Source: Crocinitomicaceae bacterium
GTDB taxonomy: Bacteria; Bacteroidota; Bacteroidia; Flavobacteriales_D; Crocinitomicaceae
Direction: 5' to 3'
Assembly (NCBI GenBank): GCA_028689775.1
Contig: JAQVCM010000011.1
Coordinates: forward strand, 87,077-151,076
Length of the DNA: 64,000 bases
Both the position numbers and the translations under genes were made by a program. The first letter of the stretch is position 1. The number at the start of each line of letters is the position of its first letter. Under the pieces are notes generated by a model, which did no database searches, was not told the origin of the DNA, and saw only the letters and a program-made list of their open reading frames with translations. This document shows positions 6,263 to 64,000 of this stretch, piece by piece.

Positions 6263-7010
6263 TATTGAAATGTTATTAAGTTATCTATTCGTTCTAAAAT
6301 ATTTCAAAGGCCTCTAAATTTGTTTTTTAAAGGTCAAGCGATATCCTCATTTTAAAGTCATTCTTGTCTAACTGCGTTGCTTGCTTCGCAGGTGTGTCAA
6401 ATTCTGTAATGACTTATTTCACAGTTTAATACATTCGTGAGAAAAAAGGTTGCAGCTTTCGATTCACAAAATGAACTTTCAGCAAATTGCAAAAACTGCA
6501 CAACTCTTACTTCTTTCGCGAAAGTATAAGTCATATCAGAAAAGGTAGGTCTCCTGGCTCATGTCTCTTTTTCCGTCTTCCCATTCGTTCTTGGACGATC
6601 AGTGACGTATTGAAAAAAGATAAGGACATCTACAGTTGCGCGACAGCTTGTGATTTGAACACAATTCCCTATTTAATTTCCTTCAAAATCAAACACCATT
6701 TTCCTTCTTATGATAAAATATCTAAGTGTCAAAATTAGTCAAATAAACAGCGATTTTTTCGGCATCGCATGAATAGTTATTGACAAAAGTAGTTTGATTT
6801 AGAACATAGATAGTCATTCGCTTTACCCTCATTATTTTAAGTTTTCAACATTCGCAAGATTGATTTTTATTTTTTATAGTGAGAATGGATTCGGGAATAC
6901 GCAGCTAAAAAAAAATGCCTGAGATTTAAAAAAATCTTGTACTTTTAATGCGTTGAATGTTCGCTTTAATCTCACTTTTACAATCGAACCCAAGTTATTA
7001 AAATACTTCT

Positions 7011-47767: not shown

Positions 47768-47840
47768 TTTTTCTCAAAGATAGTTTTTTGCCTTGGAATT
47801 AAGTCTCCAAGGCAAAAAACGTTTCTAATTTTATATTAAT

Positions 47841-49745
47841 TTACACTAATTCAATGCTGCGTTCGATGAATTTACTCAAAGCTTCACCTTTCAGCATTCC
47901 TTGTGAAAGCATTGCTAAATCAGTCAATTGTTTTACTTTTTCAACGCGAACTTGCTCGTCTGTATTTACTAAAATTTCACCAACTTTTGGGTGATTGCTA
48001 TTCACAACCAATTGGTAAGATTCTGGAAAAGCTCCGAAGAATCCTGCGCCACCCATTTTTTGTTGCTCCATCATTCGACGAATGAATTCTGGCTGCGTTA
48101 CAATGATTGGTGCTTCTGTCTCACTCATGCTTGCAAATTCAACTTTGAATTTCTCTTTGTTGACAGCGCCTTCAAAAATAACTTTCAATTTTTCCTCGTC
48201 ATCTTTCGATAATTTAGAAGGAATTTCTTCGTCTTTCTTGATCAAGTTGTCCAAAGTGTCTGAATCCACACGTGCGAAAGTCAAATCTCCTTCGTCTTGT
48301 TCCATTTTAGAAACCCAGTGCGGAACCAACGGTCCGTCCAATTCCAATACATCGTACGAACGATCTTTTGCCGCTTTCACAAATCCGTATTGTGCGTCTT
48401 TGTCGTTGGTGTACAAAGCAACTACTTTCTTGTCTTTATCCGTTTGAAGTGTCGCAATTTTTTCTTTGTATTCCGCAAGCGTATAATACTTTCCGTCCGT
48501 TGATTTCACCAAAGAGAATGCTTTTGCTTTTTCTGCAAATTTATCATCTGAAAGCGTTCCGTATTCTACGAATATTTTCAAATCTTCCCATTTTGACTCA
48601 AAATCAGCACGGTCTTTCTTGAACATTTCTGCTAATTTATCCGCAACTTTTTTGGTAATGTGACTCGAAATCTTTTTCACATTGCTATCGCTTTGCAAAT
48701 AAGAACGAGATACGTTTAATGGAATATCTGGCGAGTCAATCACTCCGTGAAGTAAGGTCAAAAATTCAGGTACGATTTCAGAAACACTGTCCGTAATGAA
48801 AACTTGATTACTGTATAAATTGATTTTATTTTTCTGAACTTCTACGTTTTCCTTGATTCTCGGGAAATATAAAATTCCGGTCAAGTTGAACGGGTAATCT
48901 ACATTCAAGTGAATGTGGAACAATGGATCTTCGAAAGACATTGGATACAATTCTCTGTAAAAAGAATTGTAATCTTCTGTCGTCAAATCTGCTGGTGCTT
49001 TCGTCCAAGCTGGTGCTGGATTGTTCACTTGATTTGGAACGTCAATCGCAACGCGTTTTACTTTTCCTGCATCGTCTTTTTCGCCTTCTGGAGAATCAAT
49101 GTATTCCGTTTTATTCCCAAAAATGATTGGAATTGGTAAGAATTTACAATATTTATCTAAAATCCCTTGAATTCTTGCTTTTTCTAAAAACTCGATGGAT
49201 TCTTCGTTGATGTATAAAACGATGTCCGTTCCTCGGTCTGCTTTTTCAATTTCCGTAATCGTATATTCTGGCGAACCGTTACTTTCCCACATCACCGCTT
49301 GCGAACCAGCGTGTCTTGAAAGTGTTCTAATCTCCACTTTTTCAGAAACCATGAACGCGGAGTAAAAACCTAATCCGAAGTGACCGATGATGCTCTCTGC
49401 TCCTTCTTTTCCTTCGTATTGTTTTACAAACTCTTCAGCTCCTGAAAATGCAATTTGGTTGATGTATTTATCAATCTCGTCGCTCGTCATTCCGATACCA
49501 CGATCCGAAATCGTCAATGTTTTAGCTGCTTTGTCTAAAATCACGCGAACTTGCAATTCACCGATTTCACCTTTAAATTCTCCTGTTGCTGCAAGCACTT
49601 TCACTTTTTGAGAAGCATCCACTGCGTTTGAAACCAATTCTCTCAAAAAGATTTCGTGGTCTGAATACAAGAATTTTTTAATGATCGGAAAGATGTTCTC
49701 CGTCTGCACATTAATTTGACCTTTTTTTACCTGACCTGTTTCCAT
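47841..49745 (-). CDS. htpG: molecular chaperone HtpG (Hsp90); start placed at the internal Met (METGQ..) of the longer ORF
   Basis: GHKL ATPase N-box (ELVSNAVDA), G-boxes, and full-length similarity to Hsp90. The 14-aa upstream extension is unlikely to be real. Confidence 0.9.
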   Translation of the reverse strand: METGQVKKGQINVQTENIFPIIKKFLYSDHEIFLRELVSNAVDASQKVKVLAATGEFKGEIGELQVRVILDKAAKTLTISDRGIGMTSDEIDKYINQIAFSGAEEFVKQYEGKEGAESIIGHFGLGFYSAFMVSEKVEIRTLSRHAGSQAVMWESNGSPEYTITEIEKADRGTDIVLYINEESIEFLEKARIQGILDKYCKFLPIPIIFGNKTEYIDSPEGEKDDAGKVKRVAIDVPNQVNNPAPAWTKAPADLTTEDYNSFYRELYPMSFEDPLFHIHLNVDYPFNLTGILYFPRIKENVEVQKNKINLYSNQVFITDSVSEIVPEFLTLLHGVIDSPDIPLNVSRSYLQSDSNVKKISSHITKKVADKLAEMFKKDRADFESKWEDLKIFVEYGTLSDDKFAEKAKAFSLVKSTDGKYYTLAEYKEKIATLQTDKDKKVVALYTNDKDAQYGFVKAAKDRSYDVLELDGPLVPHWVSKMEQDEGDLTFARVDSDTLDNLIKKDEEIPSKLSKDDEEKLKVIFEGAVNKEKFKVEFASMSETEAPIIVTQPEFIRRMMEQQKMGGAGFFGAFPESYQLVVNSNHPKVGEILVNTDEQVRVEKVKQLTDLAMLSQGMLKGEALSKFIERSIELV

Positions 49746-49932
49746 TTTTATGTTGATTTTAATATATAATTTATGCGTTTCGAGCACTTTGCTGTTACCC
49801 CATTCTCAATGACTATGCCAATGGATTTCAGGTGACAAAATGTCGGAAATTGAGCGTCTGTTGTCAGCCAAAAATGTTAATATTTCTATAAAACGTTCAA
49901 TTCTAAAAAATTAAAGACGTATCTTCGATGTC

Positions 49933-50432: not shown

Positions 50433-50987
50433 CTACACATCCAAAGTTCCAGGAAACAAGTCTTGTAATTTGTTGCAAGGATAATCAGCGATGACTTCTA
50501 GTGTTTTGTTGAGCCACTTGTCGGGGTTCACGTTGTTGAGTTTGCAGCAGGCAAAAAATGTGTAGAACATAGCCGTTTTTTGTGCGCCGTTGTGTGAACC
50601 GGCAAAAAGGTAGTTTTTGCGACCGAGTGCAACGGGACGGATTTTATTTTCGATAGCATTGTTGTCGATATGATAGTTGCCATTTTCAAGATAGGTCATC
50701 AGACTAGCCCATAATTTAGTACAGTACTCAATAGCTTTTCCAATGAGTGATTTAGGTAAAACGGCATTTCGTTCGCGATGCATCCATTGGCCTAAATCGT
50801 TGATGATTGGAAGCGCTTCCTCCAGCCGGAGAGCATGTCGTTCTTCTGCCGATAAATCTGCTAATTTTCGCTCAATGGTATAAAGTTTTTGGATTTCCTG
50901 CAATACGTATGATCCTCGCTTTTTATCTTGTAGCAATGCTTTTTCAAAATATCTGCGTGCATGCGCCCAACAAGTAAGGCTTAAACG
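50433..50987 (-). mobile_element. IS66-family transposase remnant, C-terminal ~185 aa only
   Basis: CWAHARRYFEKA and YLENGNYHIDNNAIENKIRPVALGRKNYLFAGSHNGA match conserved IS66 TnpC motifs. The frame is closed by a stop at 50988-50990. No tnpA/tnpB or N-terminal part is present. Local GC is elevated. Confidence 0.8.
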
Positions 50988-51046
50988 CTACGCAGCTTTA
51001 GCGAAGTTGCGGTTTTAGCCTTACTTGTTACCCACTGGCTTTCTTT

Positions 51047-52102
51047 CTATTTATTATGACATCTTATACTTTCATTGGGATAATATTTTTTCTTTAACCA
51101 AAATGAAACTCGAACCAAAAAGATAAGAACTGGAACTTCAACTAATGGTCCAACTACACCCGCAAAAGCCTGTCCGGAATTTAGTCCAAATACTGCTATA
51201 GCAACAGCAATCGCCAATTCAAAGTTATTTCCTGCTGCCGTAAATGAGACGGCTGCATTTTCCTTATAGGAAGCTCCCAGTGCTTTAGTAAAGAAAAAAC
51301 TGATGACAAACATTAAACTAAAATACAAAATTAAAGGAACTGCAATAATTAAAACGTCCATTGGAATTTCAACAATTAACTCTCCTTTGAGCGAGAACAT
51401 TATCACAATGGTAAACAAAAGCGCAATTAGGGTTGATGGTGAAATGGTTGGAATAAACTTTTCTGTGTACCACATTTCTCCTTTTAACCTTACCAAAATC
51501 ACTCTACTTAAAATTCCCATTAAAAAGGGTAGTCCTAAATAGATTGCTACACTTTCTGCAACCGTAGCAATTGATATATCCACAATAGCCCCTTCAAATC
51601 CAAAATACGGTGGAAGAACCGTTATAAAAATCCAAGCATAGAAACTATAGGCAAAAACTTGAAAAATACTATTTAAAGCTACCAAGCCTGCTCCATATTC
51701 GCTATCTCCTTCAGCAAGGTCGTTCCAAACCAAAACCATTGCGATACAGCGAGCTAATCCGATTAAAATAACGCCTACCATATATTCTGGATAATCACGT
51801 AAAAAAGTAATTGCCAAAACAAACATTAAAACGGGGGCAATTATCCAATTTAGAAAAAGTGAAATGGAAAGAATTTTAGTGTTTCTAAAAACTTTTGGCA
51901 AAAGCGCATAATTCACTTTAGCCAAAGGTGGATACATCATTAAGATTAATCCTATGGCTATGGGAATGTTCGTGGTGCCTCGACTCATTGAATCAATAAT
52001 GCTTGGAAATGATGGGAAGAAATATCCGACTCCCACGCCCACGAGCATAGCAATAAATATCCATAGCGTTAAATAATTATTGAGAAAACTGATTTTTTTC
52101 AT
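51047..52102 (-). CDS. acr3: arsenite efflux transporter, ACR3 family
   Basis: Ten TM helices, the ACR3 N-terminal motif ([13 protein letters not shown]), and placement in the ars operon. Confidence 0.85.
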
Positions 52103-52115
52103 GTATTACTTCTAG

Positions 52116-52532
52116 TCAATTATCGAAAATGTCTTTTTGCTGCTCAATCACTCCGTTTATATTGCACGATAACTTTACCGTATTGTAGATTGTGCCAAAT
52201 TTTTCAATATTCTTTTTTAGCAATGGGATATTTAAATTTTCATCAGAACTGTAAATCGTTAGTCTGTAATCGATGTTATCCATTTTCAAAGGTTTTTCCA
52301 TTCGTTTAGCTGACACATTTACTGTGGCTTTTGAATAAGTAAACTTCATCATAGCAGAAAATCGCTCGACATTTTTTAGCATACACGAAGCAAAAGCTCC
52401 TAAAAAAAGCTCGGCAGGATTAGGTAAAGTTTCAGCAGATTTTGAAGTTGTTCCAAAAGCTATGTCATTTTGCTTTATTTGAATAGCAGCGTCTTTATTT
52501 GAAAAAGATGATGCCCTAATTTGGTATTCCAT
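52116..52532 (-). CDS. OsmC/Ohr-family protein
   Basis: 138 aa with the conserved Cys pair spacing (ASCM...LSCNI) of OsmC-like peroxiredoxins. Embedded in the ars operon. Confidence 0.45.
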   Translation of the reverse strand: MEYQIRASSFSNKDAAIQIKQNDIAFGTTSKSAETLPNPAELFLGAFASCMLKNVERFSAMMKFTYSKATVNVSAKRMEKPLKMDNIDYRLTIYSSDENLNIPLLKKNIEKFGTIYNTVKLSCNINGVIEQQKDIFDN

Positions 52533-52569
52533 AATTATATCTATTTTATATTAGTCGTTTTGAAAATAG

Positions 52570-53205
52570 TTAAGAAGCTTTTATCTGAGAGAAAACGTAA
52601 AACAGTTCTGTTGCAATTTGCAGACTTCTTTCATTATACTTTTCTGCCTGTTGTGGTGTATTGTCAAATGCTTTTGGGTCTTCAAAAGTTATAGGAATTC
52701 GTTTTTCTGCTCCGCTAACAAATGGACAGGCTTCGTTTGCTGAATCGCAAGTCATAATTGCAGCAAATTCAGATTTCGGGTTAAAATCATCATTCAATCT
52801 TTTTGAAAATCCGATTATTGGATGCTGGTTGTACGCATATTTAATACTGTAAATTGAGTTCTCGTTTTTTGAAATAGTTTTAATCTGAAAACCTGAATTT
52901 TGCAAAGTTTCTGCAACGATTGGAAAAAGTGCCGTACTTTCTGTTCCACCTGAATAACAGAATACATTTTTGATATTGAAATGATAAGCTAAAGTTTGTG
53001 CCCAAACCTGTGATAAATGACTTCTTCGTGAATTGTGAGTACAGATGAAGTTGATTCTGATATCTTGCTGATTTGAAACTTTAGACTGTATAAATTCCGT
53101 TAGTGGTTGTAAAATTGCCTTACGTTCAGTTGAAATTGTTTGAGGATTTAAGGCCTTGATTACTTGTTCAATTTCTGAAAACATTGTTGATTTTGTTATT
53201 GACAT
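52570..53205 (-). CDS. arsC: arsenate reductase, LMW-PTP type, with an N-terminal extension
   Basis: CX5R P-loop (FICTHNSRRS) and a downstream Cys pair (CDSANEACP) of thioredoxin-coupled ArsC. Confidence 0.7.
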   Translation of the reverse strand: MSITKSTMFSEIEQVIKALNPQTISTERKAILQPLTEFIQSKVSNQQDIRINFICTHNSRRSHLSQVWAQTLAYHFNIKNVFCYSGGTESTALFPIVAETLQNSGFQIKTISKNENSIYSIKYAYNQHPIIGFSKRLNDDFNPKSEFAAIMTCDSANEACPFVSGAEKRIPITFEDPKAFDNTPQQAEKYNERSLQIATELFYVFSQIKAS

Positions 53206-53228
53206 TTTCTTAATGTTAAATTATTATT

Positions 53229-53696
53229 TTAGCAACAGCCACTGCCTGGTGTACAAGAAGATCCATTATTATATTCAGATAATTTAACTTTTGGTTTTTC
53301 ACTTGGTATGCCGCATTTATCTTTCGCCAAACAATCGGTTTGTTTATTAGTCAACAAAAAGTTTTTACCGTCAAAATCAAGTCCGAATTTCCCAATCGTA
53401 TTACCTTGATATTCCACTTCGATATCTAAATCTTCAATTCCTAAAATGCGTTCGGATAATTCAATGATGCTTAATAGTTTTTCTGGATGCAATCTGTGAT
53501 CATAGTCATTGGCGTTCCAAAGTTGGAAGTTCACTACCTTCTCGTTTCTCACAGTTCCGCCACAATCAATGAAGTGTTTTGTAACTTTTCCAACTTCTGT
53601 TACGTGAAAGTGGTTGGGTACTAATTCCCCATTTGGTAATTGGAAAGCGATCTTATCCAGTTTATTCAATTTGTTTTTAATTTCTGATAACTTCAT
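53229..53696 (-). CDS. DUF6428-like protein of ars operons with a Cys-rich C-terminus
   Basis: Positioned between arsR and arsC. C-terminal CTPGSGCC. The family assignment is from memory of Bacteroidetes ars clusters. Confidence 0.45.
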   Translation of the reverse strand: MKLSEIKNKLNKLDKIAFQLPNGELVPNHFHVTEVGKVTKHFIDCGGTVRNEKVVNFQLWNANDYDHRLHPEKLLSIIELSERILGIEDLDIEVEYQGNTIGKFGLDFDGKNFLLTNKQTDCLAKDKCGIPSEKPKVKLSEYNNGSSCTPGSGCC

Positions 53697-53751
53697 TTCT
53701 CTATATTTATTTGTTTATTGCGATTTAACGATTGATATAATGAAAAAATAA

Positions 53752-54060
53752 TTAGCAACAATCTGCTTTAGGAATGTCCTGATCTAAAAATTGATGCATT
53801 AACATTTTCATTTTAGTCCAGTTTTCACTGTCTATACAATAGCAGACTTTGACACCTTCGACAGTCCCTTTAATTAGTCCTAAGGTTTTTAATTCTTTTA
53901 AATGTTGTGATATAGTAGGTTGGGCAAGACCAATTTCTTCGGATAAATCTCCGCAATAGCAAGCATCAATTCTAAATAATTGTTGTAAAATAGCTACTCG
54001 AGCAGGATGTCCGAAGACTTTTGCGAATAGAGCGATTTCTTTTTGTTGGTCAGTATACAT
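53752..54060 (-). CDS. arsR: ArsR/SmtB-family metalloregulator
   Basis: Winged HTH (IGLAQPTISQHLKELKTLGLIK) and a metal-binding CYCGDL motif in helix 3. Confidence 0.8.
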   Translation of the reverse strand: MYTDQQKEIALFAKVFGHPARVAILQQLFRIDACYCGDLSEEIGLAQPTISQHLKELKTLGLIKGTVEGVKVCYCIDSENWTKMKMLMHQFLDQDIPKADCC

Positions 54061-54399
54061 TTTTTATATCCCTTCATTGTTTAATTGCAATATTACGATA
54101 AATAATTGAATAGTCTATTCCTTTTTTAAGTTTTGATAGGAACTTAAAATCTTTTACTGGAAATGGTTATGGAAAAATGAAACATTTTTGGTGTATTGCT
54201 CTTTTTTTAGCTTGTGGGTAACGGTTTTCGGCTTTGCGAGGGAGCGGATTTTAAGCACTACCTTTGATACGAAGCACGAAAGTTCAAATTTACGAAAAAG
54301 TTTCAATCGAAGCACTTCACCCGCTCTCTTGTAAAACCGATGTTGAACTAAACCTACGGTAGCCTTCCGCAACTATCCGTACATTTAGCGTTCACTTAA

Positions 54400-54798
54400 T
54401 ACATTTTATATGACAACGAAAAAAAAACGCCGGAAGAAGTAAGGTTCAATAAAGTCCTTAATCGTGCCTGTCGCGAAGTTAATGGCTTTTCAGAACTACT
54501 TCATCGTTTTGAACGGAATATTTCTGTTTTGGGCCGTAGTAAGAAAACGTTTGAGAATTACAGTCGCCATGTTGCAACAATGGCTTTGCACTTTCAGTGT
54601 TTGCCAACTGATTTGGATGCTGAACAAGTGCAAGAATATCTTTTTGAACTGCAAAAACGCAGTAAAACACCTTCGCAATCGTACTTTAAGCATACGGTTT
54701 ATGGACTTCGATTTCTCCTGAATGGATACAAAAAAGAGAAGCTGATTTACTTCCTTGTACGTATTATCACTTGGTTTTCACCTTGCCAAGTGAATTAA
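54400..54798 (+). pseudogene. tyrosine recombinase/integrase N-terminal (SAM-like core-binding) fragment, with no catalytic domain
   Basis: ..RSKKTFENYSRHVATMALHF..LDAEQVQEYLFELQKRSKTPSQSYFKHTVYGLRFLLN has the helical pattern of the integrase N-terminal domain. The frame ends after ~130 codons with no RHRY catalytic region. Confidence 0.4.
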
Positions 54799-54823
54799 AT
54801 TCGCTGCCTTTCTTTTGTTCGCA

Positions 54824-55363
54824 TTAATTGTTCAGTTTTAGTTTCATCATTATGTCGGTCTGCTCGTCATTGCCCAATTTGAAAATATGTTTGTCAAACT
54901 CTACGAAACCGTTTTTCTTATAAAAGTTTATAGCTCTTGGATTTTCTTCCCAAACGCCTAACCAAACAAAGTCAGAATTTTTCTGTTTTGCGACTTCAAT
55001 TGCTTTGTTATACAGAATTTGTCCAACACTCTTTCCGTGGAAGTCTTTCAAAACATAAATTCTTTCAATTTCAAGTCCTTTGTCGTCTTGAAGTTCAGTT
55101 TGTGATTGTCCAAAATTTAGTTTTAGGTAACCAATTACATTGTCGTTATGTGTCGCAAAATAAAACTCTGCGTTCTTGTCGTTAAGTTCAGTTGTCAATT
55201 TGTCGATAGAAAAACCTTCGTTTAAATATTTCGTCATATTTTCTTCGGTATTTCCTGTCGAAAAAGTTTCATAAAAAGTTTGTCTGCCAATTTTCTGTAA
55301 TTGGTCAATGTCGTCAAACGTTACCTTTTTAATTTTAATTTTTGTCATTTCTTTCGTTTGCAA
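54824..55363 (-). CDS. GNAT-family N-acetyltransferase
   Basis: Acetyl-CoA binding motif HGKSVGQILY and overall GNAT fold signatures. Confidence 0.7.
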   Translation of the reverse strand: MQTKEMTKIKIKKVTFDDIDQLQKIGRQTFYETFSTGNTEENMTKYLNEGFSIDKLTTELNDKNAEFYFATHNDNVIGYLKLNFGQSQTELQDDKGLEIERIYVLKDFHGKSVGQILYNKAIEVAKQKNSDFVWLGVWEENPRAINFYKKNGFVEFDKHIFKLGNDEQTDIMMKLKLNN

Positions 55364-55618
55364 TTTCGTCTTCTAAGGTTGCCACTAACGTTTTGCGGCT
55401 GGTGCTCTGTCGTCTGTCCTTGCTAACCATTGTCAGTATTGAGTTTCCGTTTCATTGAGTGTCGGCTGTGCGTTGCGTTTTTAATTTTTTTGAAGGGTCG
55501 GGAAATTTTTTAAAAACAATTTTTTTCTTGCGGTGGCTTTGCAAGCTCTTTGACAAAGCTTTGGTCTGTGCTTGGGCTTGTGCGGCTTTGGCAATGTGCT
55601 TGCAAATAGGGTTGGGCA

Positions 55619-57349
55619 TTATGTAAATACATCTCTAATCAATTTCTTTATTGTAAGGTTCTCAAGTTTAGATGCAATTGGTGATACATTGTCTAAGTTG
55701 TCTTTCCAGTGCATTCCTTCATTGTAAATTATTCCAAGCAGATAATGTGATTCGGGTGAAATAACTCCCATTTCTTCTGCTTTTTCTAATTTTGGTCTTG
55801 TTTTTTTAGTTGTCAAAAATGTGGTTTGAGCAACTGGATTTTGTAATCTATTATATGCTATTTCTTCAATTTTCACTCTTACTCCACCACATACTGCAAA
55901 AGGACAAAATTGTCGGTCATTCAAGTAATTATCTATTTCGCTAAACAGAAACTGATAAAAGTTATCAGACTCGCCCCAAAGCTCTCTTAAACCAAGTCCA
56001 TTAAACTCAGCTCGTTTGTTTATGTGTGTTGGGTAAAAATGAAGTAGGTGTTTTGAAACATCATCTTTAATTGAAATATGTTCTCTATTTCTGAGCAGTC
56101 TAACGATGCTTTGATTGACTTGAATATTTGATTTTTCGAGGTAGTAAACTTTTTGTTTGCTAAAAGCAAAATTCTTAAAATAGTTTGGGTTTAAATGTGT
56201 CAGAATGATTGGGTAAAGTCGCTTCCCTTCATCATTGAAATCTTTTATGAAAGTAGTAATGTAATATTGTGCTGCGGTCAGGTTTGCATCATCAAGGTAG
56301 TCGAACACTTCATCAATTATCAGAATGTTGGCATCTTTTTTTAAATGCTGTCTTGCTCTGAATAACATTGAAATGAAAGTCAAAATATCTCTTTGACCAT
56401 TTGATATATGAATAGCTTCTGGAAATTTCACAACTAATTGTCCACCTGTCTGACTGGCTCTAATTCCTTTCCAAGTGCAATTAAAAGTTGAGAGAGTATG
56501 TTCAAATCGCTGTTTGTCTAATTGGTAATTGCTATAGGCACAAGCTGCCTTGAAATTGTTAGGGTTATTGTTGTATAACCATATTAACTGAATTGCCACC
56601 AAATAGGCTTTGGATTCCGAATTATACCCAACATCAAATTCGTGTATGAGATTACCAATTGTATTTAAATAATCTATTTGTTTTAAGTCATTTAATCTGT
56701 TTGCCGTTATCCAATCTGTTAAAACATCTGCTGTGCCCGCCTGTTGATTTATTTCGTCAATAATAGCATTGATTCGAAGTTGAATTCTTTGACCATTAGC
56801 CCTTTCTAATGCTTGGTAATTCTGACTTAATTTTTCAACCAGCTTTAAATTATTTAGTGCAGCATTACGATTGGGTAATACCCGTGAATTTTGACCAAAT
56901 CTTCCTTGTGATGCCCTGAATTGATTACCAAAAGAAACATTATTAGGTATTCGGTCAACCAAAACTACATCTTTGATTTCAAGCCTTGCACTTGCTCTGC
57001 CGAATTGACTCCCAACTCCTTTGGGCTTTGTTGGATTGTTGATGACAAAAAAATCTAGTTCAGAACTTATTGTGTTTGTTGTTGCAGTGGCTTCAAGTGT
57101 AGCAATAGATGAATCAGGTCTTTCGTATTCGATATAAATTCTTGGTGGTAACGCTGGATTCTCCTGATGGTAGTTTTCTTCTGTTAAGTTAATTCGCCTG
57201 CTATTCATTTCATTGAAAGCCACAGCAAACGAACTTTTACCAAAACCGTTTGGAGCAACTAAAAGACTTGGTTTATTTGGCCAAATATCCAATGTAAACC
57301 TCTTGTGGCCTATGCCTTTTATGTTTTCTATTTCAATGACTTTAAGCAT
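55619..57349 (-). CDS. ABC/OLD-like (AAA_15/AAA_21-type) ATPase with an uncharacterised ~150-aa C-terminal domain; defence-associated
   Basis: Walker A (APNGFGKSSF), signature-like SNGQRD, Walker B/D-loop (ILIIDEVFDYLDD). The C-terminal domain has conserved CPFAVCGG and His residues. It sits 11 nt downstream of the MTase. Confidence 0.7.
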   Translation of the reverse strand: MLKVIEIENIKGIGHKRFTLDIWPNKPSLLVAPNGFGKSSFAVAFNEMNSRRINLTEENYHQENPALPPRIYIEYERPDSSIATLEATATTNTISSELDFFVINNPTKPKGVGSQFGRASARLEIKDVVLVDRIPNNVSFGNQFRASQGRFGQNSRVLPNRNAALNNLKLVEKLSQNYQALERANGQRIQLRINAIIDEINQQAGTADVLTDWITANRLNDLKQIDYLNTIGNLIHEFDVGYNSESKAYLVAIQLIWLYNNNPNNFKAACAYSNYQLDKQRFEHTLSTFNCTWKGIRASQTGGQLVVKFPEAIHISNGQRDILTFISMLFRARQHLKKDANILIIDEVFDYLDDANLTAAQYYITTFIKDFNDEGKRLYPIILTHLNPNYFKNFAFSKQKVYYLEKSNIQVNQSIVRLLRNREHISIKDDVSKHLLHFYPTHINKRAEFNGLGLRELWGESDNFYQFLFSEIDNYLNDRQFCPFAVCGGVRVKIEEIAYNRLQNPVAQTTFLTTKKTRPKLEKAEEMGVISPESHYLLGIIYNEGMHWKDNLDNVSPIASKLENLTIKKLIRDVFT

Positions 57350-57360
57350 ACTTTCGATTA

Positions 57361-60300
57361 TTAATCTTCATCCTCCTCACTCTCATTATCCACCAAAACT
57401 TCCTCTTCCAATTCATCCAATACAATTTCTTCTTTGGCTTCTATGCCGTAAAGGAGGTTTACCATTTCGTCTATTTCGGCTTCTATGGGGCGGAGTTGGG
57501 CGTTCATTTCTGCTCGGTCTATTTCTCCTGCAAAATATTCTTTCTTGATTGCCAAACATTCATCAAACTTTTTGTTGAATGCTTTCAGTTCTTTCTCTGA
57601 AGGAATAATAACTGGTAATTTTTTTATGTCATTAACAGGGATATTTACACTTGTATTGAAGAACTCCCTTAACAATTTGAAATGTAAATAGCTATTCAAT
57701 GTAAGGACAAAATATTTATCGCCAAGAAATGTCTGGTCAAACAAAGCTCTCGACCCATCGTCATTGACAGTTTTTCCTTTCAATCTTGCCTTAAAGTATG
57801 AACTATTTGGGTTTAAAACATTTGTATAACAGAATCCTTCTCGGAAGAAGAACTGTGGGTTTCTTATTACTGGATTTCCTTTGCCTTTGCCAGAATTTTC
57901 ATATAGCCACTTTACAGTTTCTCTGTTCCACAAAATGAAATTATATGTTTCCATAAACCAGCGATTACCTTCTTTATCGCCTTTATCGTATGGCACATAA
58001 ATTTCTTTTTTTGTTTTTATTCCATTATTTTTTTCGTCATCGGTTAATTCATCAACATTGGCAATTTCATCATTTGAAATAATTCGATAAATAAACCCTT
58101 TCCCAAAAACTAATGCACCAAAAGATGATTTGATGTCGTCAAATAATATTCTAATTTCTTTTTCACTTAAGGCATCTAAAACTTCTTTGCAAGTATCTAA
58201 ATCAGATATGTTCCTAAGTATTTTAAACTCGTTTCTAATCTTGGGATGTTTATCTATTGCTTTGAGTAGTTTTTCAGCTCGGCGTAAAGGAATTTTATCA
58301 GCTAAATAATGATTCTCAGATATGCCAATAAACTTACCATTATCGGCAGTTGACATACCAGCTCCTCCATCTGTTAGCAAACCAATCAATGTTAAATTAC
58401 CCTGCTTTAAATTCTTAACATTTTTCTGAAGCTCTCCTCTATTTCTTTCAATTTCTCTTGATGTTTCAATCTTACTCCACCAAGTGTCAAAAACAGGTCG
58501 GGCAGGTTTTACTATTTTTTCCAAAATCTGACAGTTGTATTCTGTTGGTGAGAAAATTGCGTAATTGATGGCTTTACGGTATGGTTCAAATGAAACTTTG
58601 AATTTGAGTAAAGTTGAATTTTCGTCTTTGAATACTTTGTCGCCATCGCAAGTATGAGAATGTTTCCATTTTGGTGTGTCGTGTCCTAATGCACTGAATG
58701 TTCTATCTAAAATACGTTCCCAACTAGAAAGATTTTCTTTTGATGTCCGAATCTGTTTCCATTCTTCTTCTGTAATATTGAAGGATTCAGCATTTGGTTT
58801 TCTAATGTCAATGTAAACTGTCTCAGGTTTATCAATGGCTCTTTCCTTCTTAACCGTGAAAATGGCAGTGTCCACCAATGCGGAAAATGCTTTAGGAGTA
58901 TTGATAATTTCGGTAACTCGGCATACAGGCAATATTTTTTCCTCGTTTACAAATAGACCTTCCTCTGATTGATTTGTTTTGGCAATGCCTAAGAAATGCA
59001 TTCGCATATTCTTTTTGGTTTGCAAAGTCAGGAAAGTGTCGGAAGTAATGTAACTCAACAAACCGCCTGATTTCAGTAATTCAAGCCCTCGGAAAGTAAA
59101 GTGATTGTAAAGGTCATCGCAAAAGCCGTATTCTTCTTCTAACTTTTTGCTAATACCCATACTGCTGATGAGTTTGGTATTTACATAAGGCGGATTGCCA
59201 ATAACAATATCAAAGCCCGGGTTTTTGCTTTCCTTGTTAAATATTCCAGGGAAAACAACTCTTTCAATGAAATAATCTTTAATGGTGTTTTTAAAGATTG
59301 CCAAATTGCCCAATTCTTCAGCCAATGCCTTTTCTTTTTTGCGGAGTTTGGCAATTTCTTTTTCGGCTGCTCGGTTTGAAACCAAATGATTGATACCCGA
59401 ACGAACAGAATTTAATTGTTTGGTAATATTGTCGCTTTGGCTGTCAACAACTCGTTCGAGTAATTTTACAATCTTCTCTTTTATTTCTTCTTTGGTTCCG
59501 TGTCGGTCGCTTTTGGTAATGAAGTACTGATTTTCGAGATTGACTAATTCTTTCAACAATTTCTCATTGTCAATTTGGTCAATCAAATTATTCAGATTTT
59601 GGTCTTTGTAAAAACGGAACAATGAGTTTTTCTTGTAAAACTTAAATTCAAGGTTGGGCAGTGGTTTCAGGTTGTAATTCTCTTTTGAGAAATCAACCCT
59701 TTGCTCCACAATCAACGAAAGCCAGCAACGTAGTTTGGTTATTTCAATCGCATATTCCAACAAGTCCACACCAAACAAACAACTCCGCAATAAGCCCAAT
59801 TTTTTCACATAGCGAATTTGCCCATCAGCAAACATTTCAGAAATATGCTCTCTGAATTGCTCGTCTTTTGACTTCATCATTTCAGCCACCCACACTTTGC
59901 CTTCGGGGTCAACGGTAGTTAGCACTTGCATCATTTCTTCCAACATACCCATTGGGAAAGCTCCCGAACCACAAGCAGGGTCAAGCACGGTTGTTTCCAA
60001 AAGTTTGTGAATGATGGTTTTGCTGTTTTCGGGTTTTATTTCAGTATCGAGATGTTTCAATAAAGTGCTTCGACACATATAAGAAACCACAGGACGGGGC
60101 GTATAGAAGGCACCCGCATTTTTACGGGCTGCTTCTTTGGTATCATCGCTTTGTTCTGCCAACAAGTTTTCAAAAATTCTACCCAACATTTCAGGGTCAA
60201 CGGCAATTTCTTCTTCAAGTGGTGTGTTCTCTGCAATGGTGAATTTGTATCGGGCAAGAATGCTGTTCAGTCCTTTTTCTCTGTCTAAAAACAAGGTGTC

Positions 60301-61398
60301 GGGAACAGCAAAGGCATTATTCACTTTCCCCAAATCGCACCAGTCGTTTGGATGAATGTCGAACAAACCTCCATTCAGGTAAGGTGAAAAGAAAATAGCA
60401 TCTTTGATAGCTTTTTCATCAGAAAAATTTGCAGCATAAACATCAAATACTTTTTTATCACGGTCTTTCTTTTCGCTGTTCAGTGCGTTAAAGAAAAGGT
60501 TTTGCAGAATGAATTTATAATAAGCTGTGCCTTTGCTTTTGGGTTTTATCAGGTCGTTTTCTTCTCCATTTTCAAACTCAGGCAACAATAAACCATCTTT
60601 CACCACTTTGAGTTCTTTCAAAAACCAAATAAAAATCAATCTGGCAATCAGACGAACGGTAAAATCTTTGTGTTTTTCAGAACCTGAATTTTGATCAGGA
60701 ATTTTAATGTCTTTTACTGCTTTATTGAACCAAGCAATAATGTCTTCATAAAAATTCTTGTTGAGAACTGAAATGGAGAATACCGATTGCCAGTAGTAAT
60801 ACAACTGCGTGAAACTCTTAACGGCTTTGCTTCCTGTGGTTGGAATCACCAATTGTTTGAGAATGGCTATATGTCCTCTGTGTGGTTGATTGGTGTCAAT
60901 GTCTTTCAGTAAAGAGACCTTGCCAACTTTTTCACCTTCCCGCCATTCCTGTTTGTATTTAATGCGTTCACTGTTGGCAAACGAAATCAGGTTGCCATAT
61001 TTAAAAATGATGGTTACTGGTGTGTAAGGGAAAGTGCGGTTAAATGCTCTTGTAATTTCAGCTAAATGGCTTCTTGTAATAGGTAAGCCGTCTTTTCTGT
61101 TTTTCAGTGTTACGCCAAAAAGCAACAAGCCGTCATAATCGGCTTTTAGTTTTTTTACTTGTGCTAAATTTTTGAATGTTTCAGTGCCTTCAAAAATGGC
61201 ATCGTTCACCATACCCAAAGCAAATACATCTTCAATGAGTTTATGTGCTTCGTTGGTAGCTTTGAATCGTTCGCCCAATACATCAACTGCTGATGCAGGT
61301 TCGTCAGCCAAATAATCAACTGGCACTTTGAGTTCTTCAAAAAACGCTTTTAAAGCATTTATGAAAGATTCGCTATGGAATTTTGAAATTGAATTCAT
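57361..61398 (-). CDS. MmeI/PglX-family (Eco57I-like) N6-adenine DNA methyltransferase, 1345 aa
   Basis: Motif I DPACGSGAF and motif IV GNPPYV. Family-specific upstream motifs: SPYLNGGLFD, VDPEMLGRIFENLL, GAFYTPRPVV. Confidence 0.85.
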   Translation of the reverse strand: MNSISKFHSESFINALKAFFEELKVPVDYLADEPASAVDVLGERFKATNEAHKLIEDVFALGMVNDAIFEGTETFKNLAQVKKLKADYDGLLLFGVTLKNRKDGLPITRSHLAEITRAFNRTFPYTPVTIIFKYGNLISFANSERIKYKQEWREGEKVGKVSLLKDIDTNQPHRGHIAILKQLVIPTTGSKAVKSFTQLYYYWQSVFSISVLNKNFYEDIIAWFNKAVKDIKIPDQNSGSEKHKDFTVRLIARLIFIWFLKELKVVKDGLLLPEFENGEENDLIKPKSKGTAYYKFILQNLFFNALNSEKKDRDKKVFDVYAANFSDEKAIKDAIFFSPYLNGGLFDIHPNDWCDLGKVNNAFAVPDTLFLDREKGLNSILARYKFTIAENTPLEEEIAVDPEMLGRIFENLLAEQSDDTKEAARKNAGAFYTPRPVVSYMCRSTLLKHLDTEIKPENSKTIIHKLLETTVLDPACGSGAFPMGMLEEMMQVLTTVDPEGKVWVAEMMKSKDEQFREHISEMFADGQIRYVKKLGLLRSCLFGVDLLEYAIEITKLRCWLSLIVEQRVDFSKENYNLKPLPNLEFKFYKKNSLFRFYKDQNLNNLIDQIDNEKLLKELVNLENQYFITKSDRHGTKEEIKEKIVKLLERVVDSQSDNITKQLNSVRSGINHLVSNRAAEKEIAKLRKKEKALAEELGNLAIFKNTIKDYFIERVVFPGIFNKESKNPGFDIVIGNPPYVNTKLISSMGISKKLEEEYGFCDDLYNHFTFRGLELLKSGGLLSYITSDTFLTLQTKKNMRMHFLGIAKTNQSEEGLFVNEEKILPVCRVTEIINTPKAFSALVDTAIFTVKKERAIDKPETVYIDIRKPNAESFNITEEEWKQIRTSKENLSSWERILDRTFSALGHDTPKWKHSHTCDGDKVFKDENSTLLKFKVSFEPYRKAINYAIFSPTEYNCQILEKIVKPARPVFDTWWSKIETSREIERNRGELQKNVKNLKQGNLTLIGLLTDGGAGMSTADNGKFIGISENHYLADKIPLRRAEKLLKAIDKHPKIRNEFKILRNISDLDTCKEVLDALSEKEIRILFDDIKSSFGALVFGKGFIYRIISNDEIANVDELTDDEKNNGIKTKKEIYVPYDKGDKEGNRWFMETYNFILWNRETVKWLYENSGKGKGNPVIRNPQFFFREGFCYTNVLNPNSSYFKARLKGKTVNDDGSRALFDQTFLGDKYFVLTLNSYLHFKLLREFFNTSVNIPVNDIKKLPVIIPSEKELKAFNKKFDECLAIKKEYFAGEIDRAEMNAQLRPIEAEIDEMVNLLYGIEAKEEIVLDELEEEVLVDNESEEDED

Positions 61399-64000
61399 TA
61401 TTTACTTATGATAAACCAAGTGATTAAATCGAAATTGTCTTTATTGAATTTCTGCGAAGCAGATCCTTCATTTTTTAATTTTTGAATGGTGGTTTTACTT
61501 CCTGATTTCAGTTTGTTCAACATATCGAGTGAAGCTTTTCCCATTTTTTGTTTTACTGTGCCATCTTCCTGCACTTCTTCTTCCGTTGCCTGACTTTTTA
61601 ACCAAGTGCTTAATGCAGCCGATAAATGTTCGATAGATTTTGGTTCGCCTTGGTCAATGGCTTTTGGCACAAAACGAACTTCTTCTTTGTGTTTTGCCAA
61701 AGCGTCCAATACTTCTTTTTGGTTTAAGAATACCGATTTGCCCGAATGGTCAATGTAAATGAGTTCGTAACCCTTGTATTCAAAATTATTGGCTTTGGCA
61801 GGTTTGCTTGGATAGCCCAACAAGGCAATCATTCCTTCTTGTGGGCAAACTTCCTGAATGGCTTTAAACCCTGTGTAAATGCCGTTTGGAAGCGATTTAT
61901 AAAACTGCTCGTTCTTTCGCAGTTCTTCTAGCAATTCCTGACGGAAGGTTTCTAAAGACAAGTCATCAAAGCCTAATGATTTTTCGGTGTCAATTTCATC
62001 CCAAGAAGATTGCATTTGCTCCAACATCCTTGCTTTTTGTTTCTGCTCCAGATTTTCATCTTCTGCCATTTCTTTGAATGTGTCGGAGAAATCTAAATGA
62101 ACTTCCGAACCTGCCAATTTCATTGCAGCCATTCTTTGTTCAATTCTGCCTTGTAAATTCAAATAAGAATTGATGTTGTTGGATGGCCAGAAATTAATGC
62201 CAAATATTTTTGTGTTTGGCGAACCCAAACGGTCAATACGACCCATTCGTTGAATAACACGAACAGGATTCCAGTGAATATCATAGTTAATTACCAAATC
62301 ACAATCTTGCAAGTTTTGTCCCTCACTCAAAGCATCCGTTGCTATCAGAATATCAATCGGGCTTTGCAGTTTTTCATAAGTCCGTTTGTCGTTCTCTGCA
62401 ATCCAATGTTGCCATTCGTCAAACTGTTGGTTTAAAGAAAGTTCTTTGCTTGATGGTTCAAATTGCCATTCCTTTTCTCTGTATAATTTGGTGAAAGGAG
62501 CAAAGCGTTCCAAAATAGGTTCATACTTTTTGGTTTCTCCTTCTTCATTCCAAACGGTCGAAGTATCGCCACTTACAGCAGCCACTTTATCAAAACCTCT
62601 TGATTTCAGTTGGTCAAAGAGATAAAAAGCGGTGTCTTTGTAAACGGTAAAGATTAAAACTTTTGGATTACCATTATTATCACCTGACTGTCTTTTCTTT
62701 ATAATTCGGTTTATCAGTGTTTCCAGTTTATCATCTTCGCTGCTGTGGTTGCGTGGCTTCTTAATCTCTTTCGCAATTTTCCTTTCAAACTGAATTAAGT
62801 TCGATTGCAATAATTGCAATGCTTCAATATCTGCTTTTAAATCCTTCTTGTAGTTCTCAATATTGCCCGAACGGTCAATGTCCACCAATCGGGTTTTACG
62901 TTTCTTGCCTAAGGTGAAATCTTCTATTTGAGCTAAAATATCATCATCATCAAAGAGGGAAGGTTGGGCTTCATTCCAACCTGTTTCCTTCTTAGTTTCC
63001 TGATATTGCTTTATTCTATCGAGTGCATTTTGATGATGAGCTAAAATTTTTTCTGTGGTTGATTGAAAAGAAAACCAAGAAGATTCCAGTCGTTTCACCA
63101 ACAAGATATACATCATCTTCACCAAGAAATGGTCACGCTGTTTTTCATCGTGTAAAATGTCGGCATCTTCAAATTCGTCAATGTAAAATGAAGGTTGATA
63201 ACCCGAAAGCATTGGCGGAAAATGGTCGAAGAGTTCTTCAAAGCTTTCAAAGTTTCCGATTTGTTTGGGTGTGACGAAAATGTTTTCGGGCTTTGATTTT
63301 TTCGGAAACTCCAAACCGTCCTGATGTCCTTCAATCATTTTGCGGGTTCGTGCAACTGTTAAAGAATCAGTCAGTTTGAAAAAATTAGGCGGTAACTTCT
63401 TAATGAATTCACCAATTTTTGGGTCAGGTTCTTGTGTCCATTCGTTGAATGCCTTTTGTGCTGCTCTAAATGTGTAATCAATGTTTTTAATGTCTAATGA
63501 TTCTTCAAAACCTTTTGCATTGCCGCTAACAATTAGTTTGAATTGATTCCGAATATCCATGAACGAATTATTGATTGGCGTTGCGGAAAGCATCAATACT
63601 TTCACATCTTCGTTTTGTGAAAGAATCTGGTCAACCAAAAATTTGTAGCGTTTGGATTTATCGTTTCGCAAATTGTGGCTTTCGTCAATCACAAACAATT
63701 TGGGCTTTTCATTCAAAAACATTTTGTCTGCTCGGTCGTGGTATTTCTCCATCAAATCGTCTGTAAGGTCAGTATGAAATCTCAAGAAATATTCAAACTG
63801 GTCTTTCTCAAATTTAGAGTTTTGATTCTTCTGGTAAATTCGCCAGTTGTATTGCAGTTTCTTTGGGCAAATTAAAATCACTTCACGTCCTTGTAACTGA
63901 TAGAATTTCATTACTGCCAAAGCAGTCCAAGTTTTACCCAAACCCACTGCATCGGCTAAAATTGCTCCGTTATGTTTTTGAAGCATTTTAATCAAACTCA
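61398..64000 (-). CDS. SNF2-family helicase; the N-terminus runs off the window end
   Basis: Motif I (LADAVGLGKTWT), motif II (DESHNLRN), motif III (LSATP), motif VI (QRMGRIDRLGS). Its stop overlaps the MTase start (TAATG). Confidence 0.8.
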   Translation of the reverse strand, partial: SLIKMLQKHNGAILADAVGLGKTWTALAVMKFYQLQGREVILICPKKLQYNWRIYQKNQNSKFEKDQFEYFLRFHTDLTDDLMEKYHDRADKMFLNEKPKLFVIDESHNLRNDKSKRYKFLVDQILSQNEDVKVLMLSATPINNSFMDIRNQFKLIVSGNAKGFEESLDIKNIDYTFRAAQKAFNEWTQEPDPKIGEFIKKLPPNFFKLTDSLTVARTRKMIEGHQDGLEFPKKSKPENIFVTPKQIGNFESFEELFDHFPPMLSGYQPSFYIDEFEDADILHDEKQRDHFLVKMMYILLVKRLESSWFSFQSTTEKILAHHQNALDRIKQYQETKKETGWNEAQPSLFDDDDILAQIEDFTLGKKRKTRLVDIDRSGNIENYKKDLKADIEALQLLQSNLIQFERKIAKEIKKPRNHSSEDDKLETLINRIIKKRQSGDNNGNPKVLIFTVYKDTAFYLFDQLKSRGFDKVAAVSGDTSTVWNEEGETKKYEPILERFAPFTKLYREKEWQFEPSSKELSLNQQFDEWQHWIAENDKRTYEKLQSPIDILIATDALSEGQNLQDCDLVINYDIHWNPVRVIQRMGRIDRLGSPNTKIFGINFWPSNNINSYLNLQGRIEQRMAAMKLAGSEVHLDFSDTFKEMAEDENLEQKQKARMLEQMQSSWDEIDTEKSLGFDDLSLETFRQELLEELRKNEQFYKSLPNGIYTGFKAIQEVCPQEGMIALLGYPSKPAKANNFEYKGYELIYIDHSGKSVFLNQKEVLDALAKHKEEVRFVPKAIDQGEPKSIEHLSAALSTWLKSQATEEEVQEDGTVKQKMGKASLDMLNKLKSGSKTTIQKLKNEGSASQKFNKDNFDLITWFIISK

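Follow-up and report, generated by a model that had tools for sequence, protein, structure and literature searches.

Among the closest described counterparts of the locus analysed here is the group of Type-2 BREX-related (BR), Hma and Gao_RL-MANTIS systems, which combines a DUF499 AAA+ ATPase, an N6-methylase and an SNF2 helicase-nuclease (PMC12839542; bioRxiv 10.64898/2026.09.23.753747). Within this group, an HKD-SNF2 fusion was proposed to be the primary effector of Type-2 BR systems, 98% of which also contain a stand-alone DUF3780 gene (PMC12839542). A Cj0031-like methylase beside a PLD-SNF gene was noted earlier (PMC9881135), and related Bacteroidota loci that have an SNF2 or PLD-SNF gene as a neighbour have been classified as type IIG (PMC5608340, PMC9881135). 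As for ATPases, the ABC-HEPN fusions encoded in restriction operons include the anticodon nucleases PrrC and RloC (PMC1484252, PMC3710099), and the triad of PrrC, R320-x3-E324...H356, has been defined by mutation (PMC1484252).

The present locus reaches the end of the window (the whole 64,000-nt stretch of DNA that was analysed) and consists of three co-directional minus-strand genes encoding a helicase, a methylase and an ATPase (Table 1). Their tight packing, claimed in an earlier note made from the DNA letters, was recovered from the reading frames, including the single base shared by the helicase stop and the methylase start and the 11-nt gap in front of the ATPase gene. The same note had placed the genes in an island with IS66 and integrase remnants, of which the IS66 transposase fragment was located but no integrase was found in the 35-56 kb part of the window among reading frames 100 aa or longer; an arsenic-resistance cluster also lies beside the locus. 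The analysis described below makes it probable that the locus is a composite, in which a restriction-modification pair of helicase and methylase is followed by an independent single-gene ATPase module.

Table 1. Positions of the features described in the text, numbered from the first base of the window.
Feature	Coordinates	Strand	Basis or remark
Helicase ORF, partial	61398..64000	(-)	3' 866 codons of the predicted HKD-nuclease/SNF2-helicase gene
TAATG stop/start overlap, helicase/methylase	61396..61400	(-)	read from ORF coordinates; base 61398 common to helicase stop codon (61400-61398) and methylase ATG (61398-61396)
Methylase ORF	57361..61398	(-)	1345-aa gamma-class N6-adenine DNA methyltransferase
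SAM-binding motif I DPACGSGAF, aa 473-481	59956..59982	(-)	translation
Catalytic motif IV NPPY, aa 735-738	59185..59196	(-)	translation
11-nt spacer, methylase stop to ATPase ATG	57350..57360	(-)	ORF coordinates
ATPase ORF	55619..57349	(-)	576-aa ABC-type ATPase, C-terminal all-helical HEPN-like domain
ATPase C-terminal domain, aa 400-576	55622..56152	(-)	predicted effector domain
R491 codon	55877-55879	(-)	invariant in ATPase C-terminal domain
E495 codon	55865-55867	(-)	invariant in ATPase C-terminal domain
H547 codon	55709-55711	(-)	invariant in ATPase C-terminal domain
Conserved non-coding stretch	55370..55618	(-)	travels with ATPase gene
Imperfect hairpin, start of the stretch	about 55526-55594	(-)	fold prediction
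IS66 transposase fragment	50433-50936		

The helicase reading frame remains open up to base 64000, that is, it runs off the window edge. The alignment of the window sequence with full-length homologues, which have a length of about 1128-1131 aa, starts at homologue residue 264, which places the ~263 N-terminal codons, HKD motif included, beyond the edge. Pfam detected SNF2-rel_dom, ResIII and Helicase_C in the visible portion, and the best PADLOC match was the 'HKD+Snf2' profile C3a139 (1.9e-57, from profile position 225). H111-x-K113...G132-S-S-N135 does not vary among 36 homologues and shows at least 95% conservation among 55; the SNF2 motifs, too, are invariant. Read from these motifs, the full-length helicases (~1130 aa) join an N-terminal HKD (phospholipase-D-type) putative nuclease to an SNF2 motor. 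Because this domain falls off the window, its presence in the window's own protein is presumed from the homologues, one of which (L004) is 97% identical and gives a sub-threshold PLDc_2 match.

The 1345-aa translation contains every motif that the earlier note had quoted for the methylase, namely SPYLNGGLFD, VDPEMLGRIFENLL, DPACGSGAF and GNPPYV. Motif I DPACGSGAF precedes motif IV NPPY, as in a gamma-class N6A methylase with its target-recognition domain (TRD) in the same chain; D473, P474, G477, S478 and G479 of motif I and the whole of motif IV are invariant in 45 homologues. Eco57I (6e-25) and N6_Mtase were the Pfam families matched, and the family profile recovered CamA (3e-42), BseCI, BrxX/PglX, TaqI and, weakly, MmeI, all restricted to the C-terminal half of the methylase and the TRD. 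Most of the conservation falls within residues 1-800, and the variable remainder (800-1345) is predicted to be the target-recognition region, as expected of a specificity domain. Conservation is strong in the N-terminal ~400 aa, where many charged residues are invariant, and residues 1-400 matched no Pfam family or solved structure.

A self-sufficient type IIG enzyme, with this N-terminal region as its nuclease and the HKD-SNF2 protein separate or accessory, would account for that conservation, for the best PADLOC model (type IIG REase_MTase, 3.9e-62, with PglX and DrmMI at only about 1e-20) and for the published annotation of related loci. The single-chain gamma-class methylase with its TRD is indeed shared with MmeI and Cj0031-like type IIG enzymes. 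We nevertheless consider this account improbable, as no PD-(D/E)xK, MmeI-nuclease or other nuclease model matched the N-terminus, the Pfam MmeI_Mtase match was below cut-off and covered the methylase core only, and the helicase is not only co-conserved with the methylase, often with overlapping stop and start codons, but far better preserved than it (mean column identity of 64% versus 33%). Unlike type IIG enzymes, the locus places a predicted HKD-type nuclease on a separate SNF2 protein, and the methylase has no recognisable PD-(D/E)xK domain. With type III and ISP systems, the locus shares the pairing of a methylase with an SF2 motor-nuclease. The motors of those systems (Res in type III) are not known to belong to the SNF2 family, and their nucleases are of the PD-(D/E)xK or Mrr kind.

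The co-conservation was revealed by a methylase scan, which retrieved 78 distinct loci. Both genes are present in the same order, helicase upstream, in 69 of the 78, and the helicase and methylase thus constitute a widespread conserved two-gene module. The pair is spread over Bacteroidota, Desulfobacterota, Nitrospirota and others, and a partial methylase match was obtained on a cyanobacterial plasmid. They are directly adjacent in 36 of these 69 loci and interrupted in the other 33 by YhcG, KilA-N, Abi_2 or PDDEXK_3 genes, the usual passengers of restriction operons; the same families and EVE recur as extra genes near the pair, and no further gene family occurs in more than 17 of the 78 loci. 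Upstream of the helicase, the genes are unrelated and mostly housekeeping (PKS, PALP, a permease and lipid-A enzymes among those sampled), with another defence gene in one case. The earlier note had left the part of the system past position 64000 out of view. The helicase does continue there but, given a self-contained pair with unrelated genes upstream of it, further system genes are not expected, and the hidden part should hold the helicase's own HKD nuclease domain only.

Fragmented, decaying copies were encountered in several loci, as would be expected of defence genes that are dispensable and move horizontally. SNF2 proteins also act in transcription, and RapA is among the helicase profile matches, so that an orphan methylase and an SNF2 remodeller might be imagined to serve epigenetic regulation or chromatin-like remodelling instead of defence. 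Such a role appears extremely unlikely in view of the invariant HKD nuclease motif fused to the motor, the hypervariable specificity region, the Abi_2, YhcG and KilA-N passengers embedded in the pair, the decaying copies, and the arsenic-resistance cluster and IS66 fragment adjoining the locus here. Most likely, the two genes are a minimal ATP-dependent restriction-modification pair. In the mechanism we propose, the methylase would read a short DNA target via its variable C-terminal region and mark host DNA, while unmarked sites would lead to the loading or licensing of the SNF2 partner, a translocase that would travel on DNA at the expense of ATP and cut it. The single N-terminal HKD motif in each chain implies that cutting probably needs two chains together.

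The earlier note had recognised a defence-related locus matching neither canonical BREX nor canonical DISARM, which is supported. DISARM class 1 resembles the locus in that an SNF2 helicase lies beside an adenine methylase of large size. PLD/HKD chemistry is common to both as well, but it resides in a separate DrmC protein in DISARM and is fused to the helicase here. DrmA, DrmB (DUF1998) and DrmC (PLD) are absent between 50 and 64 kb of the window, and none of them is conserved in the 78 loci. NCBIfam scored the helicase far under the family cut-offs for DrmD (133.7 bits against 610, and 95.5 against 950), a gap that the ~263 N-terminal residues missing from the query cannot make up, and DrmMI models were weaker on the methylase than type IIG models. 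With BREX, the locus shares the methylase core and part of the TRD region of PglX/BrxX (1e-18 to 4e-21 versus solved BrxX structures). The PglX scores again fell far short (BREX-1, 90.4 against 500; BREX-6, 62 against 900; BREX-2, 18 against 400), and PglZ, BrxC/PglY, BrxA, BrxB and BrxL are absent from the window neighbours and the 78 related loci.

The likeness to Type-2 BR is one of architecture, comprising an SNF2 helicase with a predicted N-terminal HKD effector, an adenine methylase and a restriction-like ATP-dependent logic. The methylase of the locus is nonetheless Eco57I/TaqI-like with a novel N-terminus rather than of the DUF1156 type, and the PADLOC match to HmaA (9e-16 only) extends over generic helicase motifs. 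The window ATPase is ABC-type instead of DUF499 and lacks a conserved association with the pair, no conserved ATPase of ~1000 aa was seen near the pair in the 69 loci, and no DUF3780-like conserved small gene was found beside it among the part of the neighbours scanned with Pfam. With no PglZ, BrxC, DrmA/B/C, DUF499 or DUF3780 gene conserved among the neighbours scanned, the locus is therefore not BREX, DISARM, Hma or "BR".

The third gene encodes an ATPase in whose N-terminal head the Walker A, signature, Walker B and H-loop motifs are all intact. For this protein, Pfam returned only a sub-threshold SMC_N match. It had been called ABC/OLD-like; the ABC type holds, but the protein is not OLD-like because it is without a TOPRIM domain, its C-terminus being all-helical and the downstream gene encoding a GNAT acetyltransferase. 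A resemblance to AbiLi, Septu PtuA, Gabija GajA and OLD is likewise limited to the ATPase head, with no TOPRIM or HNH domain or partner here. The C-terminal domain, described previously as Cys/His-containing, is all-helical and not a Cys/His metal-binding module.

The ATPase family comprises 593 clusters at 50% identity, and its genes are located at the 3' end of systems of different kinds (type I, type II, Mrr-helicase, HKD-SNF2): homologues of 85-88% identity lie behind type I hsdRMS and behind an Mrr-helicase, one of 82% identity is preceded by a type II M+R pair, and plasmids carry distant members that stand by themselves. In none of the 78 methylase-retrieved loci is the ATPase next to the pair, and among the 50 loci that extend far enough downstream, 36 show no ABC ATPase in the slot behind the pair. 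The ATPase gene is accordingly an exchangeable add-on outside the conserved pair, and the single three-component DISARM/BREX-related system suggested in the earlier note is not supported. Conservation in unrelated contexts, which the same note had named among the grounds for refutation, was found in part, namely for the ATPase homologues behind different restriction systems.

It is still conceivable that in this lineage the three genes act as one integrated system, in which the helicase-methylase machine requires the ABC ATPase as a loader, sensor or motor subunit, given the 1-nt overlap and 11-nt spacer, and the recurrence of the three-gene order in four loci, two with the same 11-nt spacer (L082, L089) and two with one extra gene in between (L084, L097). 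A precedent from a related class is MANTIS, where methylation depends on the AAA+ ATPase MtsA (bioRxiv 10.64898/2026.09.23.753747). The distribution described above and the ABC-type rather than DUF499/AAA+ nature of the ATPase render such an obligate role unlikely.

PrrC and RloC are roughly 400 and 800 aa in size, as opposed to the 576 aa of the ATPase, and resemble it in joining an N-terminal ABC ATPase, its motifs intact, to a helical C-terminal domain that bears an invariant R-x3-E...H set, and in being encoded within restriction operons or at their ends. No AAA_13, PADLOC PrrC or RloC match was obtained at E <=0.01, and no sequence relationship is detectable. R491-x3-E495 and H547 match the PrrC triad in pattern only. 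The present family occurs with several restriction types rather than type Ic alone, and its members also stand alone. HEPN-like fold matches to the C-terminal domain were weak, and R422, H437, R491, E495 and H547 are invariant in 117 sequences that are ~30% identical. By analogy with PrrC, we read the ATPase as a putative autonomous, restriction-linked back-up effector. Its position directly behind a restriction operon would allow co-expression; the ATPase head may hold the C-terminal domain silent until restriction is being defeated, upon which the domain would be released to damage RNA as a second line of defence. Alternatively, the C-terminal domain could be a non-catalytic sensor or binding domain without RNase activity, like the HEPN-fold repressor MtlR, in which case ATP-driven binding of, for example, DNA ends or a phage protein may modulate restriction or recruit an effector. 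This is rather unlikely, five invariant polar residues at such divergence being more typical of an active site and the R-x3-E...H pattern resembling a mutationally defined triad.

A bolder pair of propositions, held jointly and only tentatively, is that the helicase and methylase represent a distinct minimal class of ATP-dependent restriction-modification needing no loader ATPase, and that the ATPase founds a new large ABC-ATPase/HEPN-like family of general 'restriction-failure' guards, mobilised as a cassette with its own 3' hairpin-bearing stretch onto the 3' end of restriction systems. As such guards would sit on mechanistically different restriction systems, the trigger would have to be common to all of them, for instance a DNA mimic with anti-restriction activity or foreign DNA that has survived, instead of contact with one restriction complex as in PrrC-EcoprrI. 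The conserved non-coding stretch 3' of the ATPase gene, for which Rfam returned no match, begins with the predicted hairpin (minimum free energy -21 kcal/mol, z -1.7), 80% of whose alignment cells are paired across 11 sequences with weak covariation, and the same stretch lies behind ATPase homologues that have different upstream systems.

At the end of the window lie three co-directional minus-strand genes, which an earlier note had read as one DISARM/BREX-related defence system of non-canonical make-up. On sequence grounds, they comprise a predicted two-gene restriction pair and, behind it, a putative guard gene that is exchangeable and belongs to a large family lacking annotation. The layout described in that note was reproduced: all three reading frames were found (see the table), the stop codon of the helicase overlaps the ATG of the methylase at base 61398 (TAATG), the methylase stop and the ATPase ATG are 11 nt apart, and all four reported methylase motifs occur in the translation. 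Pfam matches were obtained for the helicase (SNF2-rel_dom, ResIII, and Helicase_C) and the methylase (Eco57I and N6_Mtase), while the ATPase matched SMC_N only, below threshold.

Features of the window and of related genome loci (L numbers), with their coordinates
Feature	Position	Strand	Remarks
ABC ATPase ORF	55619-57349	minus	576 aa
Methylase ORF	57361-61398	minus	1345 aa
Helicase ORF	61398 to window edge	minus	frame still open at base 64000
GNAT acetyltransferase, then arsenic-resistance-like cluster, then IS66 transposase fragment	window 50433-55363		downstream of ATPase; IS66 fragment 167 aa
Conserved 3′ stretch	window 55370-55618	minus	also L080, L084, L086, L088, L089, L091, L097, L099, L102
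HSP90-like HATPase protein and TerB-DnaJ fusion	window 46949-49787	minus	648 aa and 272 aa
Cobalamin riboswitch	window 6527-6715	minus	Rfam RF00174, 88.6 bits
Passengers between helicase and methylase	L003, L012, L014, L017, L020-L022, L030, L037, L039, L040, others
Second methylase-like ORF	L054:19576-21312	minus	578 aa
c3 ATPase	L021-L025, L027, L029, L036, L041 (13714-15447), L043, L047, L050, L065, L071, L072, L074
Zinc-ribbon-like protein	L087:3289-3783, L093:1629-2123, L099:6143-6637, L104:6079-6573, L102		164 aa; remnants in L083, L122
Other HEPN-/PrrC-type genes near ATPase homologues	L131:3-2084, L131:9051-9932, L087:2718-3278

The region past position 64000 was inferred from homologues, the sole other contig with an identical methylase (L001, 8.4 kb) being shorter than the window. 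Full-length helicase homologues comprise approximately 1128–1131 residues, and the window sequence aligns from their residue 264. Their N-terminus, corresponding to the region off the window, gives a sub-threshold PLDc_2 match and carries H111-x-K113 and G132-S-S-N135, motifs that show no variation among 36 homologues and at least 95% conservation among 55. PADLOC matches the window fragment best to its 'HKD+Snf2' model (1.9e-57), entered at profile position 225. Given the HKD motif in the homologues, the unseen stretch is predicted to be the HKD nuclease domain of the helicase itself and not further genes. Upstream of the helicase, the genes sampled in other genomes encode a polyketide synthase, a PLP enzyme, an AMP ligase, an amino-acid permease, PagL, a lipid A acyltransferase, and similar products. 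The helicase is highly conserved (mean column identity 64%), and its family profile matches eukaryotic SNF2 remodellers and RapA.

A scan of one genome per species with the methylase yielded 78 distinct loci, in 69 of which the helicase precedes the methylase in the same orientation. The two genes are directly adjacent in 36 of the 69 and are separated in 33 by one or two genes (YhcG/DUF1016 nuclease, KilA-N, Abi_2, and PDDEXK_3), all typical passengers of restriction operons. Besides the pair itself, each gene family is present in at most 17 of the 78 loci. EVE-domain and deaminase/HATPase_c_4 genes were seen 3′ of the methylase in other loci. The helicase and/or the methylase is broken into several ORFs in L014, L018, L019, L066, L077, and L079, which suggests decaying copies.

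Conservation of the methylase is limited to residues 1–800; the C-terminal ~550 residues vary freely, and this variation points to their behaving as a specificity domain. Among solved structures, the methylase family profile matched CamA, BseCI, BrxX/PglX, and TaqI, with MmeI matched weakly, always within the second half of the methylase core and the recognition domain; its first ~790 positions matched none of the solved structures, and a single-sequence phmmer search of these with the methylase returned nothing. An invertible or phase-variable methylase was rejected, the 50–64 kb portion of the window being devoid of meaningful inverted repeats. L054 has a second methylase-like ORF on the opposite strand, ~5 kb downstream of the main one, possibly as a spare specificity module for use in inversion, an arrangement reported for related enzymes (PMC9881135). 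A Prevotella 'type IIG' locus with an SNF2 helicase upstream is a putative homologue of the window locus, and its methylase expressed alone writes m6A at GGYGAB (PMC5608340).

The non-canonical character ascribed to the locus was borne out, and the genes are real. For DISARM, the window helicase scores 134 bits with one NCBIfam DrmD model (cut-off 610) and 96 bits with another (cut-off 950); for BREX, the PglX models gave the methylase 90 bits (cut-off 500), 62 bits (cut-off 900), and 18 bits (cut-off 400). PADLOC ranked type IIG (208 bits) far above PglX and DrmMI (~68–70 bits). The HKD-SNF2 effector is common to the pair and the Type-2 BREX-related systems, but the defining genes of the latter, a DUF499 AAA+ ATPase and a DUF3780 gene (found in 98% of them), and their DUF1156-type methylase (PMC12839542) are all absent at the window locus. 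Hma and MANTIS/Gao_RL are also centred on DUF499, unlike the window locus. From these comparisons of family membership, the pair is filed as a predicted minimal restriction-modification system driven by ATP, which varies the theme of a methylase with an SNF2 nuclease and lies outside every named system. If it works as proposed, it would be the simplest known form of the defence logic on which DISARM, BREX type 3, Hma, and MANTIS are built, and would reveal which of their parts are dispensable. The pair is frequent among Bacteroidota and sulfate reducers, bacteria in which gene-transfer barriers hamper genetic work, and its methylation motif, once known, would aid the transformation of these organisms.

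The reading of all three genes as a single system was rejected on the co-occurrence data, since a tblastn search of the 78 loci retrieved with the methylase did not find the window ATPase in any of them; with the DrmD and PglX scores also under their cut-offs, the three-component DISARM/BREX-related system was not upheld. The ATPase has a large family of its own, with more than 2500 protein matches in a 90%-clustered set and, in a 50%-clustered set, 593 matching clusters (308 below 1e-30), nearly all of 570–610 aa and aligned end to end. Pfam, NCBIfam, and PADLOC (2023) offer no model for it, and the accessible part of the 2013 HEPN survey supplement contains no Leadbetterella entry in its text. 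Homologues follow type I hsdR-M-S operons of two different lineages (12 loci), the HKD-SNF2 pair (5 loci, or 7 counting the window and L001), and a type II methylase with a BsuBI/PstI endonuclease, then Hachiman; another context is an Mrr-helicase-HA protein, and further ones are defence islands with GmrSD, an AAA_13 protein, or ArdA-bearing elements. The preceding system changes even between homologues 82–95% identical to the window protein, nucleotide conservation starts at the ATPase start codon, and homologues of ~31% identity are solitary on Sinorhizobium, Agrobacterium, and Brochothrix plasmids. The linkage is modular, with tight spacing behind any preceding operon, and the gene is regarded from its contexts as a separate, exchangeable guard module. 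Found with four or more kinds of restriction system, the family is a candidate new back-up or abortive-infection effector, suited to asking how guards sense the failure of unrelated first-line systems.

In seven loci, a protein of 164 aa lies directly 5′ of the ATPase and may be an optional partner; it has a CxxC...CxC zinc-ribbon-like motif, matches no Pfam family, and is absent from the window. Also near ATPase homologues are genes for a member of the AAA_13 (PrrC/RloC) family and, just 5′ of the ATPase, for DUF4145/MtlR-like HEPN proteins.

AlphaFold2 modelled the ATPase confidently (pLDDT 95) from an alignment of 117 diverse homologues, in which R422, H437, R491, E495, and H547 are the invariant polar residues and N543 is conserved at 90% or more. 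The arginine of the canonical HEPN Rx4-6H motif is missing, the sequence there being Y-N-x3-H. At the level of pattern, R491-x3-E495...H547 resembles the PrrC triad R320-x3-E324...H356, which was defined by mutation (PMC1484252), and the C-terminal domain is tentatively considered HEPN-like. Membership of OLD/TOPRIM, PARIS, Septu, or Gabija was rejected, as the likeness is confined to the ATPase head. The family profile matched ABC heads only among solved structures, in which single-sequence phmmer found nothing; comparing the C-terminal domain with the PDB in Foldseek yielded no significant match, and Pfam and PADLOC scans of 41 such domains yielded nothing consistent.

A census of the 50 loci in which 1.8 kb or more follows the methylase found another 575-aa ABC ATPase (cluster c3) immediately 3′ of the methylase, the slot of the window ATPase, in 14 (15 loci overall), nothing co-directional in 11, and assorted genes in the rest. 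The c3 protein has an AAA_23/SMC_N head and a C-terminal end with invariant R541-x2-N544-x3-H548. Distant homology to the window ATPase was rejected, since hmmsearch found nothing and hhalign aligned the Walker A region only; the two are different ABC families, c3 representing a putative second, independent ABC plus HEPN-like solution at the same position. ABC-HEPN fusions inside restriction operons are an established theme, the paradigm being PrrC, a nuclease that its restriction enzyme keeps silent and a phage anti-restriction factor frees (PMC3710099, bioRxiv 10.1101/2024.01.29.577857). Embedded ABC-HEPN guards and HKD-SNF2 effectors have both been described already, and nothing here is categorically new.

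What the sequences show directly is domain content, intact catalytic motifs, the conserved pairing of helicase and methylase, a variable specificity region, and the modular, tightly spaced linkage of the ATPase; the proposed mechanism goes beyond this. The methylase would mark self DNA and, at unmarked sites, recruit or license the HKD-SNF2 motor. Cutting would require two HKD-bearing chains, because each chain has one HKD motif; known single-HKD nucleases work as dimers. The ATPase would act as a co-transcribed second-line effector, its nucleotide-driven head gating an RNase-like C-terminal domain. Its place behind restriction systems of differing mechanism, and its occurrence on its own, make a general signal a likelier trigger than contact with one specific restriction complex.

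Directly after the ATPase stop codon, a ~250-nt non-coding stretch is conserved regardless of the upstream system. It opens with an imperfect hairpin (TTTGCAAGC..TTGCCAAAGC / GCTTTGTCAA..GCTTGCAAA), which RNAalifold did not recover and manual pair counting supports weakly, and continues into an A/T-rich tract; in the window, the copy apparently lacks a middle block found at other loci. No Rfam family was found for the stretch, which may function as a terminator, as an RNA element, or as a site of recombination, and the 32–43 aa ORF called within it is probably spurious.

Of the proposed island with IS66 and integrase remnants, the IS66 transposase fragment was confirmed, and the ORFs of 100 aa or longer in the 35–56 kb region included no integrase. 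The island setting is backed by the GNAT, arsenic-resistance, and IS66 cargo beside the locus, the arsenic cluster comprising ArsR, DUF6428, a low-molecular-weight phosphatase (LMWPc)/ArsC-like protein, OsmC, and an ACR3-type (ACR3/SBF) carrier. Elsewhere in the window, an HSP90-like HATPase protein adjoins a TerB-DnaJ fusion in an unusual pairing, and a cobalamin riboswitch is present.
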